This document shows, one piece after another, positions 33,201 to 36,200 of a DNA stretch of 64,000 nucleotides (positions are counted from its first letter, which is position 1; every line of letters starts with the position of its first letter). The stretch is taken from NCBI RefSeq assembly GCF_048403405.1, contig NZ_CP183129.1, one strand, 5' to 3'. Position numbers: made by a program. Origin of the DNA: Escherichia coli (GTDB lineage Bacteria > Pseudomonadota > Gammaproteobacteria > Enterobacterales > Enterobacteriaceae).

Positions 33201-36200
33201 ACGGCAGCACAGGAAGCGGAATTTCAGCGTGATTACGAGCGTGCCAGAATAGTGTGGTCATTCGCCTTACATGTTGCAACAACCACGATTAACAAAAATC
33301 TGGCCATAGCTCATATTCGACGCTGCGATACTTTGTTGCATAAATCAAAAACAGTACCCGGAAACAACACGGGGGGCCGGTCAGTGTGCCTGAGACCCCA
33401 ACATCCCCGGAGATGACTGACATTTCCGGACTGACGCAGTTGTTGCATATCTGTGGCAATACGTTGTATCCAGCCAAGTTGCGTTATTTCGTCGGTTGTT
33501 TCGTGGGCGTAGTGATGTATGGGGCCTTCGATGGGAAAGTAAAACTAGCGGAAAATAAAAGTACTCGCCTGCCTACGGACCTTTTTACTCAGGGTATTTT
33601 TGTTTTCCATAACGTTGCGTATTAACATGAAGGAGAACGAGGGGGATTAGGTAATCTCTTTCCATGAAAATACGCAAACGTTCATCACCGAAGTGAAAAA
33701 TCAGTTTTTGATATTTAAATGATTTTTCAAATCATATTTCAGCAGGACACTACCAGCACCTAACAGCAGCACATCTTTGATGACAAAACTGTCAACTTTT
33801 CCCAGTTGTGGTAACAGACTTAGTGTGACTAAACCTGTAACAATAACGATAATATCTCCCAGTATGCCAGCAGCAGGCCTGAAGAAGCCGATACTCAGTG
33901 CTAGAAAAGTGATAGTTTCCACTATGCCGAGGAAATAGCTCCCCCCATGAACACCAAACATAATGTACAGGATATTCAGCCACGTGGGAGAAATCAGGGG
34001 CTTGAGGGCCATCACTTCAAAATCAAACCATTTATAGGTCCCGAAGAGCATAAATATTATAATAACAGACAGGCGAAGAATAACTATGTCATAATCTGAT
34101 TTAATGTAAACATTAATAAATTTTTTCATTTCATTCTCCGGGTGGAAAATTATATGCACTAAAAAGGATTAAGTACGGGTATCAAGCATTTTAATTAAAG
34201 CGTTAACGGTTCCTGAATAGGTATCATGTGGTGGAAGTCGATTTAACATCAGTGCCCCCTTTAGTGTAGAACAGACTATAACGGCGAGCTCATCCGGAAG
34301 AAGAACTGTTTTGAACTCTCCACTATTCTGCCCGGAGGTGATAATATCTTTAATCATCTGTATCTCCTGATGTGCCAGTTGACTTACAGCCTCCTGTAAT
34401 TCAGGAGAAAACTGATGGCTGTCGGATAGCATGGCATAAATACCGCACATTTCCCCTCTTTCAGCACAACCAGCAAATGCATCAAGATATGTCCTGAGAC
34501 GTTGTACACCAGAAGAAACATTATGGAGAGTTATATTAAGTCTATCAAATACTTCTGTTTTGTATTGGCAGTAGGCTATACCAAGATCAGTTTTCCTCGG
34601 GAAATGGTGATGAATACTGGCTTTTCTGATACCAATTTCTTTTTCCAGATCTGCGTAACTGAACCCCAAAAATCCGCGTTGCTGGATCAGAGTATCCGTT
34701 ATGCGAAGTATATTCTCATAAGTAGACACGGCTTTACCTGTTATGTATTAAAGGGACTATTATACATATTTTAACGATAGATAATGGCAGTTCCATCAAG
34801 TTTATTTTTTCCTCCCAATGAAGTGATTCGGAAATGAGAACCTCCTGCCTGCTCCGCTTTGTCTTTAAGCGCAGTTGCCACCTCTTCTGGTGTATATAGA
34901 TTACCAACAGAAATATAGTCTGACGGCATCAAACCAACAACGTCCTGACGATTAATTTCATCTGCAGCAGTTGCGTAGCCTGTCAGAATGAGACCAAGGG
35001 CGACAATGGTAGTGCAGATAACATAATTCATGAGCAGTTTCTCTTTATGTTTGCGATACTACACATGCTACCTTCTGATTGGTAGGCTTGCAAGATGGAT
35101 TTATTTAAAATAAGAGGGATGATTTGTATCAAATTGTTTTGTATTTTTGTGTTTTGTATCACTGAGGTGAAGTTGTAAGATCTGGCCCTCTGCGAGGTTG
35201 GCTCTGTCGAAAGGAACAGGTGACGAGAGTTAACATCGTTGCCTTGGCTGCATGGGGGATATGTAGCTACCCCCTGATATTTCCGCCACGGAAGCCAATA
35301 TGAACAACAATAACAATACGCCTCGTTTCCAGTATGCTTCATGTCGGATATTTTGTAAGCGCTATGTACTTCCCGGGACGCTTATCTTTTAGCCGTAGCT
35401 GGTAGTGCAATAAAAGCCTGGCAGCAATCCAGGCCTCTACGTTCTAAGAATCAACTGTCAGTGCAGAGGAATGCGCACGACGCTCTCGTTGTTATTGGCT
35501 TTTGCCGTCGCACCGTCGTTTTTCACGGTGACAAACAGCGCGTGCGCTTTGCTATCCGTCTTATATCACTGGTGCTGACAATGTGGATGAGGTCGCCTTT
35601 AAAAAAGGCCATCGTTATATAACGGTGATCTCCGATCGCGATGGTCGTGCGCTGGCCTTAACGGACGATTGTGGCACAGAGAGCCTCGCCGGCTATCTTC
35701 GCACGCTTACTGACGAGCAGTTGCTGGCTATCAAAACGCTCTCAATGGACATGAATGCAGGCTATATAAGAGCAGCGCGTATCCACTTACCCTGTGCGGT
35801 TGAGAAAATCGCCTTCGACCGCTTCCATGTAGCAAAGCAACTTGGCGAAGTGGTTGATAAAACCCGTCAGAATGAACATCCGCACCTCCCTGTTGAAAGT
35901 TGGCGTCAGGCAAAGGGGGCCCGCTTCCTGTGGCAGTACAGCGATAAATGGATGACCAAATCCAGGCAGGAAAAGCTGATATGGCTGCGTGCACAGATGA
36001 AGCTGACAAGCCAGTGCTGGGCGCTGAAAGAGCTGGCAAAGGATATCTGGAACAGGCCATGGAGTGAGGAAAGACGTAATGACTGGGAGAGATGGCTGGC
36101 TCTGGCGGCCAACAGTGACGTTCCTATGATGAAAAACGCCGCGAAAACGATAGGAAAAAGGCTTTACGGGATCCTGAATGCCATGTGTCTCAAACGGAAA

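Follow-up and report, generated by a model that had tools for sequence, protein, structure and literature searches.

The question raised by this locus is whether three co-directional minus-strand genes in a 64-kb stretch of Escherichia coli DNA (contig NZ_CP183129.1; hereafter the window), coding for a DUF1471 protein, a TetR-family regulator and a DUF417 membrane protein, merely resemble the rcrARB operon of uropathogenic E. coli (UPEC) or are that operon, and how they are controlled. More than any other known determinant, the rcrARB operon accounts for the higher resistance of UPEC to hypochlorous acid (HOCl) and to neutrophils, the cells that make HOCl, and it lets urinary-tract E. coli survive this oxidant. 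We found that positions 33500-35400 of the window are 100% identical to positions 3442127-3444027 of the CFT073 genome (NC_004431.1; 1901 bp), with many other extraintestinal pathogenic E. coli (ExPEC) genomes matching likewise. The original prediction had spoken of a resemblance to rcrARB, which was borne out and even understated the case; it had also suggested a comparison with CFT073, with low identity as the outcome that would speak against it, and that comparison gave full nucleotide identity. Genes c3599, c3600 and c3601 of CFT073 were renamed rcrA, rcrR and rcrB by Sultana et al. (2022, mBio; PMC9600549). The identification is correct but already known, rcrARB having been studied since 2022 in a strain whose operon has the identical sequence, and by itself it adds nothing new; what the present analysis contributes is a prediction of the promoter and operator, a correction of the rcrB start and the regulon and plasmid context. 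We regard it as very highly probable that the cassette is the rcrARB operon of a pheV-type ExPEC island, identical to the CFT073 copy and working by the published mechanism, with the promoter, operator and start codon that we infer below. Its genes are as follows.

34771-35031, minus strand: rcrA (c3599), 86 amino acids (aa), ATG start; DUF1471/YdgH-BhsA-like protein
34169-34729, minus strand: rcrR (c3600), 186 aa, GTG start; TetR-family repressor that senses HOCl and chloramines
33701-34129, minus strand: rcrB (c3601), 142 aa, ATG at 34129; DUF417 inner-membrane protein, the HOCl-resistance effector

The open reading frame (ORF) listing and the sequence itself place the three genes exactly in the range 33701-35031, with intergenic gaps of 41 and 39 nt; the G+C content of the cassette is 39.9%, against 45.7% for the whole window. 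Pfam searches agree with the domain content originally proposed from the ORFs. The first protein matches PF07338 (YdgH/BhsA/McbA-like, formerly DUF1471; E = 1e-12), the second combines PF00440 (TetR_N, residues 7-49) with PF16925 (TetR_C_13, residues 74-168), and the third matches PF04224 (DUF417) in two pieces (E = 6e-11 and 4e-9) between which model positions 58-82 are missing. The RefSeq annotation of the locus reads the same: DUF1471 protein, TetR/AcrR regulator, DUF417 protein. A further ORF of 104 aa, at 35028-35342 across the promoter region, was judged spurious, as it is not in RefSeq and lies in nonconserved DNA.

The correspondence with the published operon extends to the reagents used to study it: all eight published deletion-arm sequences and both Pc3599 promoter primers (Table S4, PMC9600549) map exactly onto the gene boundaries in the window. 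The RcrA gene is identical to CFT073 C_RS17090, and the cysteines of RcrR, at positions 54, 88, 95 and 153, are the four residues mutated in that study (C54S, C88S, C95S and C153S; PMC9600549). Gene order is the same as that of CFT073 rcrARB (Sultana et al., 2022, PMC9600549; Crompton et al., 2023; Sultana et al., 2026, preprint), as are the island neighbors pap, iha, sat, iuc and hly. Nothing that we found contradicts the identification.

Because the sequence is identical to that of CFT073 rcrARB, the mechanism in the present strain would be the published one. In CFT073, deletion of rcrR raises rcrA expression 105-fold and rcrB expression 24-fold, and reduced RcrR, which represses both genes, shifts a fragment upstream of rcrA in electrophoretic mobility shift assays (EMSA); its DNA binding is lowered by N-chlorotaurine, restored by dithiothreitol and unaffected by hydrogen peroxide (H2O2), and the C54S and C95S variants bind DNA poorly (PMC9600549). 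In the published model, oxidized RcrR forms reversible intermolecular Cys54-Cys95 disulfides, which are followed by DNA release and derepression (PMC9600549). RcrR is oxidized, and the operon induced, by HOCl, hypobromous acid (HOBr) and chloramines and not by H2O2 or hypothiocyanous acid (HOSCN), a response described as specific to reactive chlorine species, and a 2026 review agrees with this account of rcrARB. Deletion of rcrB leaves CFT073 as sensitive to HOCl as K-12 and more readily killed by neutrophils (PMC9600549), and RcrB alone has been reported to suffice for protection. The biology given in the original prediction, with RcrR as a TetR repressor sensitive to redox state and RcrB as the source of HOCl resistance, agrees with the literature (PMC9600549). 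Transferred to the window, RcrR would repress the operon until HOCl or chloramines oxidize it; the oxidized protein, through intermolecular disulfides for which Cys54 and Cys95 are critical, would leave the DNA and derepress the operon, and RcrB in the inner membrane would then lower the HOCl burden in a glutathione-dependent manner.

All four cysteines and the helix-turn-helix region of RcrR are invariant in five homologs of 74-76% identity; the nearest solved structures are uncharacterized TetR proteins. RcrA begins with MNYVICTTIVALGLILTGYATA|ADE, which reads like a probable Sec signal peptide, and the protein is probably a small periplasmic DUF1471 protein; among solved structures it gave two weak matches, each to a "putative periplasmic protein" (E = 0.07 and 0.5). 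Deletion of rcrA has no HOCl phenotype (PMC9600549).

Two other systems are among the closest known. The RclR/RclABC system of K-12 (where RclC is YkgB) shares with rcrARB a response to reactive chlorine species, a DUF417 inner-membrane protein and a regulator that senses oxidation through cysteines. RclR, however, is an activator switched on by an intramolecular disulfide, whereas RcrR is a TetR repressor (PMC9600549), and about 25 positions in the middle of the DUF417 model have no counterpart in RcrB. NemR, which controls nemA-gloA, is like RcrR a TetR-family repressor inactivated by reactive chlorine species, but the two show only distant sequence similarity (E = 8e-5 to NemR, PDB 4yze), and NemR differs in its cysteines, in its thiol-sulfenamide switch and in its target genes.

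Predicted promoter and candidate operator upstream of rcrA

No mapped RcrR operator is given in PMC9600549, the 2023 paper, the 2026 preprint or the RcrR passages of the 2026 review. Since the helix-turn-helix region of RcrR is invariant among the homologs of 74-76% identity, a shared operator is expected, and we compared the window with related loci, namely, plasmids and contigs encoding RcrR homologs of 52-85% identity. Their diversity came from a protein search and contig look-ups; a scan of genome contigs with an RcrR alignment, using two N-terminal peptide patterns, yielded one locus. The elements discussed in this region are listed in the order in which they approach rcrA.

35029-35461, minus strand: Pc3599 EMSA fragment, 433 bp, which binds reduced RcrR (PMC9600549); primers Pc3599-fw at 35433-35461 and Pc3599-rev at 35029-35043
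35159-35151, 35144-35136 and 35129-35121, minus strand: three phased repeats ATACAAAWC with an exact spacing of 15 nt, 28-66 nt upstream of the predicted -35 element
35088-35093, minus strand: predicted -35 element TTGCAA; of the 18 aligned sites in RcrR-family promoters, 17 have the TTG
35071-35086, minus strand: predicted operator core CCTACC-AATC-AGAAGG (CCTACCAATCAGAAGG), filling the 17-nt spacer and directly adjoining the -10 element, inside the EMSA fragment
35065-35070, minus strand: predicted -10 element TAGCAT, with the family pattern TAGnnT; the promoter has 8 of 12 matches, under the threshold of a generic scan

A generic sigma-70 scan gave no minus-strand site upstream of rcrA, and because the promoter reaches only that score in such a scan, it was found by comparison instead. 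Alignment of the region upstream of rcrA from the window and four plasmid loci revealed that homology begins near 35145 and that the gene-proximal block is conserved, whereas the repeat region is not. In 18 promoter sites, drawn from 17 loci, this block aligns without gaps to the consensus CTTGc-caa-CCTACC-ttct-ggTAGG-TAGnnT, in which the family consensus of the predicted operator, CCTACC-ttct-GGTAGG, lies inside TTGnnn, a 17-nt spacer and TAGnnT. In some loci the two arms of the palindrome show compensatory changes, to CCTTCC/GGAAGG in an 85% identical E. coli variant and to CCTATC/GATAGG in Klebsiella, whose palindrome is longer and perfect over 24 bp. In the 106 kb of the 17 loci, the pattern CCTWCC-N4-GGWAGG is matched exactly 6 times and, when one mismatch is allowed, 16 times, as against 0 and 0.37 in shuffles, and when two mismatches are allowed the core at 35071-35086 is the sole match in the 64-kb window. 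A perfectly palindromic, "repaired" form of the predicted operator in the window would read CCTACCTTCTGGTAGG.

These patterns, which come from comparison of sequences, make the palindrome at 35071-35086 the likely RcrR operator. Across the family, an inverted repeat between the predicted -35 and -10 elements is conserved together with the regulator, as would suit a classic TetR-type operator; the window's own copy is imperfect (four of six arm pairs). The rcrARB promoter would accordingly be composed of TTGCAA (35093-35088), a 17-nt spacer and TAGCAT (35070-35065), and RcrR bound at the spacer palindrome, CCTACC-N4-(A/G)GAAGG, would most likely occlude RNA polymerase. The 16-bp prediction narrows what the 433-bp EMSA fragment could not resolve.

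Other candidate elements in the region fared less well. An imperfect inverted repeat of 18 nt across the rcrA start (35009-35062) was considered as a hairpin of the 5' untranslated region and rejected, its predicted RNA fold having a z score of -0.82, with 39 of 200 shuffles folding as well; an Rfam scan of 33400-35600 returned only a meaningless snoRNA match (E = 0.82). Among generic sigma-70-like matches in the region, the best is TTGATA-17-CATAAT (10 of 12), at 34520-34548 on the minus strand, inside rcrR and about 390 nt upstream of rcrB; it could represent an internal promoter or a chance match. A fourth copy of ATACAAAAC (34557-34565) lies a short way upstream of this match, at the codons adjoining Cys54.

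The RcrB effector and its start codon

According to the 2026 preprint (10.64898/2026.03.12.711259), RcrB resides in the inner membrane and has four transmembrane helices; its presence leads to depletion of extracellular HOCl and protection of neighboring cells, and gshA, required for glutathione synthesis, is needed. The same preprint reports that the conserved, periplasm-facing residues K43, W44, W60 and K128 are required, while the mutants keep their expression and localization. In the 142-aa model these residues are K33, W34, W50 and K118, and we found them to be invariant in nine homologs. No cysteine is present in the 142 aa, and a structure search yielded neither a solved relative nor a cofactor-binding relative of RcrB.

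The difference of 10 in residue numbers reflects the choice of start codon: the CFT073 papers count from a GTG, giving 152 aa, whereas our comparison favors an ATG, giving 142 aa. The GTG, at 34159, belongs to the legacy c3601 model on which the papers rely, and the published c3601 deletion arm ends at 34160. The ATG at 34129 is preceded by a Shine-Dalgarno sequence, GGAG-N7-ATG, that is invariant along with it in the homologs, and all nine aligned RcrB homologs start at this ATG, as does the RefSeq model. The upstream GTG is absent from the homologs, which moreover show a 2-nt indel between the GTG and ATG positions; as it is not conserved, we rejected it as the rcrB start. The alignment thus points to the ATG at 34129 as the probable true start of rcrB, with the numbering in the literature probably beginning 10 codons too early. 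A separate observation concerns E. coli FDAARGOS_1290 (NZ_CP070048.1, 2761991-2765090), where the DUF417 gene is interrupted by an IS5 element and annotated as two fragments; the cassette is otherwise identical and would be a natural rcrB-null allele.

Alternative explanations

Could the three genes instead form a generic TetR-controlled envelope-stress or biofilm module, built from BhsA-like and RclC-like proteins and merely similar to rcrARB? Weak family-level matches to BhsA, YhcN and RclC are what such a view would draw on. The scores are, however, far under the equivalog cutoffs: RcrA reaches 47.6 bits against the 90 bits of the BhsA/YcfR equivalog (NCBIfam NF047859) and is only a member of the DUF1471 family, and RcrB reaches 22.4 bits against the 275 bits of the RclC equivalog (NCBIfam NF040476). 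Published genetics point the same way, as RclC does not complement an rcrB deletion, nor does either protein replace the other, and biofilm formation is independent of RcrB. Together with the 100% identity to a characterized operon, these data already refute the generic module, which retains practically no probability. A more specific proposal, made in the original prediction, concerned direct repeats at about 35117-35160 as candidate operators. The repeats themselves are real, with exact copies of TTTTGTAT at 35137-35144 and 35152-35159 and copies of TGWTTTGTATCA at 35120-35131 and 35150-35161. They are unlikely to be due to chance (ATACAAAWC has 5 matches in the window where 1.67 are expected, a number reached in 3 of 100 shuffles); their Tandem Repeats Finder score is weak; they lie within the 433-bp fragment shifted by RcrR, and the first and third of the phased copies extend to TGATACAAAWCA with short inverted ends, TGAT...ATCA. 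Their role as operator is nevertheless unsupported and appears very improbable. Although the DNA-binding region of RcrR is invariant, the repeats are missing from the homologous promoters of Klebsiella, Raoultella and Serratia and from all more distant loci; they belong to the CFT073 type, with only a partial set in its closest variant (the 85% identical E. coli locus L009), as opposed to the conserved palindrome 35-90 nt downstream. At about -63 to -101 from the predicted transcription start (~35058) they would be poorly placed for a repressor, whereas the palindrome occupies the classic repressor position. TetR-family dimers, too, typically bind palindromes rather than 15-nt direct repeats.

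The rcrARB identification leaves room for a different view of its effector, which we put forward ourselves: RcrB might not be a catalyst but a small facilitator in the membrane through which glutathione, or some other reductant, is delivered to the periplasm or the outside, where the exported thiol would quench HOCl. The need for gshA in protection would fit such a role, as would the depletion of extracellular HOCl by RcrB-expressing cells and their shielding of neighbors, and so would the small size of RcrB, with its four predicted transmembrane helices, lack of cysteine and lack of a solved or cofactor-binding relative. The conserved periplasm-facing lysines and tryptophans, on the other hand, are essential even where expression and localization are unchanged, and the authors of the preprint read this as direct redox chemistry, leaving the facilitator as a distinctly less probable, if serious, option. 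Several points do weigh against our full reading of the locus as a working rcrARB operon with the promoter and operator proposed here. What is reported on RcrB chemistry comes from a preprint, and a 142-aa protein without a cysteine or a recognizable cofactor site is an unusual catalyst. The operator copy in the window is among the least symmetric, tied for lowest with two other sites; its right arm meets the conserved -10 element, and part of the conservation could reflect the promoter rather than the operator. The published EMSA fragment spans both the palindrome and the repeats and does not discriminate between them, and the transcription start of rcrARB is a prediction from sequence.

Distribution, related loci and island context

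The cassette has a match in 801 of 5426 complete E. coli genomes, 732 of them with at least 80% coverage, and nearly all matches are chromosomal and at least 99% identical. A cassette about 76% identical is carried by 588 Klebsiella plasmids in PLSDB, including pLVPK and pK2044. These cassettes, known here from sequence, contain the same three genes in the same order as rcrARB (RcrR 74% and RcrB 79% identical) and the same promoter architecture, with the perfect 24-bp palindrome. They differ from the chromosomal E. coli cassette in being plasmid borne and in being followed by three co-directional genes absent from it, which code for a member of the carboxymuconolactone decarboxylase family, a DM13 protein and a DUF1471 protein of 306 aa. 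On pLVPK (locus L004, 4114-7324) and Kp52.145 plasmid II (L007), the cassette is directly downstream of iutA and near rmpA2; on Klebsiella virulence plasmids, the same cassette thus adjoins the gene for the aerobactin receptor. In the E. coli island, iutA is likewise present, about 15 kb from rcrARB. RcrR homologs in Klebsiella, Serratia and Salmonella had already been noted (PMC9600549). Homology with the Klebsiella, Raoultella and Serratia cassettes runs from about 114 nt upstream of rcrA (about 35145) to a few bases before the rcrB stop (33709), and in the window the cassette lies between an ISL3 remnant and part of a TOTE-system primase gene; the three-gene set has the look of a separate, imported unit.

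Beyond the cassette, other Enterobacterales and Comamonas have the RcrR box ahead of DUF417 and DUF1471 genes, and the promoter-embedded palindrome was located at 2807-2822 of L015, 2801-2816 of L017, 3623-3638 of L018 and 1350-1365 of L019. It stands before a DUF417-msrB-msrA array on a Morganella-labelled contig and before DUF1471-msrB-msrA-tetR in K. aerogenes. In Pseudocitrobacter and a Salmonella-labelled genome, it is found between an RcrR-like tetR-GAF-SDR operon, whose GAF-domain gene possibly codes for a free-methionine-sulfoxide reductase, and a divergent operon coding for a cytochrome b, a molybdenum oxidoreductase and a Met-rich peptide. The presence of RcrR-type boxes before methionine-sulfoxide-repair genes in other genera fits a chlorine-stress regulon. 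On balance, these contexts favor, somewhat less firmly than they do the operator assignment in the window, a palindrome CCTACC-N4-GGTAGG in TTGnnn-N17-TAGnnT that would be the so far unmapped RcrR operator and would define a wider RcrR-family regulon. In such a regulon, the UPEC operator copy would be degenerate and possibly leakier, and the phased repeats, spaced by 15 nt, would be an addition specific to the lineage. A side observation concerns an E. coli-labelled contig (L011) with two RcrR paralogs 1.7 kb apart (3001-3573 and 5313-5873; 68% and 66% identical to RcrR), the second of which has an RcrR box and a remnant of rcrA before it.

Taken as a whole, the window comes from a sister strain of CFT073 and corresponds to the reverse complement of the pheV island of that strain, which it matches in two blocks at 99.55-99.68% identity, and its neighboring genes are the CFT073 island genes pap, iha, sat, iuc/iutA and hlyCABD. 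Identity with CFT073 over the whole window was considered and rejected, given these values and the absence of ISEc10: the 2.4-kb element (istAB) at 3445765-3448174 of CFT073 is missing, with the junction at 31762-31766. Other ExPEC strains, such as 4621 and MS 69-1, match positions 28000-40000 of the window at 100% and likewise are without the insertion sequence.

The same island carries a second oxidant defense. OrhK/OrhR (c3564/c3565) and c3566-c3568 make up a peroxide-responsive, Msr-like system that is cotranscribed with hlyCABD and was published in 2021 (PMC8550376); the suggestion that an Msr-like module near hly gives the island two oxidant defenses was correct and, like the operon itself, already known. 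In UPEC, this module differs from rcrARB in its two-component control and its response to peroxide (PMC8550376), and no RcrR box is present near it in the 64-kb window. The divergent cytochrome b/molybdenum module described above in other genera is homologous to c3566-c3568. In the window, a cytochrome b/molybdenum-oxidoreductase pair of the c3566/c3567 type lies beside hlyC (60344-61982, minus strand) and is 54-61% identical to the pair in L015 and L017, where it adjoins RcrR-like regulators with a perfect RcrR box. The cytochrome b gene of the window is split into overlapping ORFs (61587-61982 and 61384-61698) that align to intact homologs in two frames, and RefSeq marks it as a frameshifted pseudogene; deletion of c3566 nevertheless has a phenotype (PMC8550376). 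An 80-aa ORF at 60344-60586 codes for a Met-rich peptide of the c3568 type.

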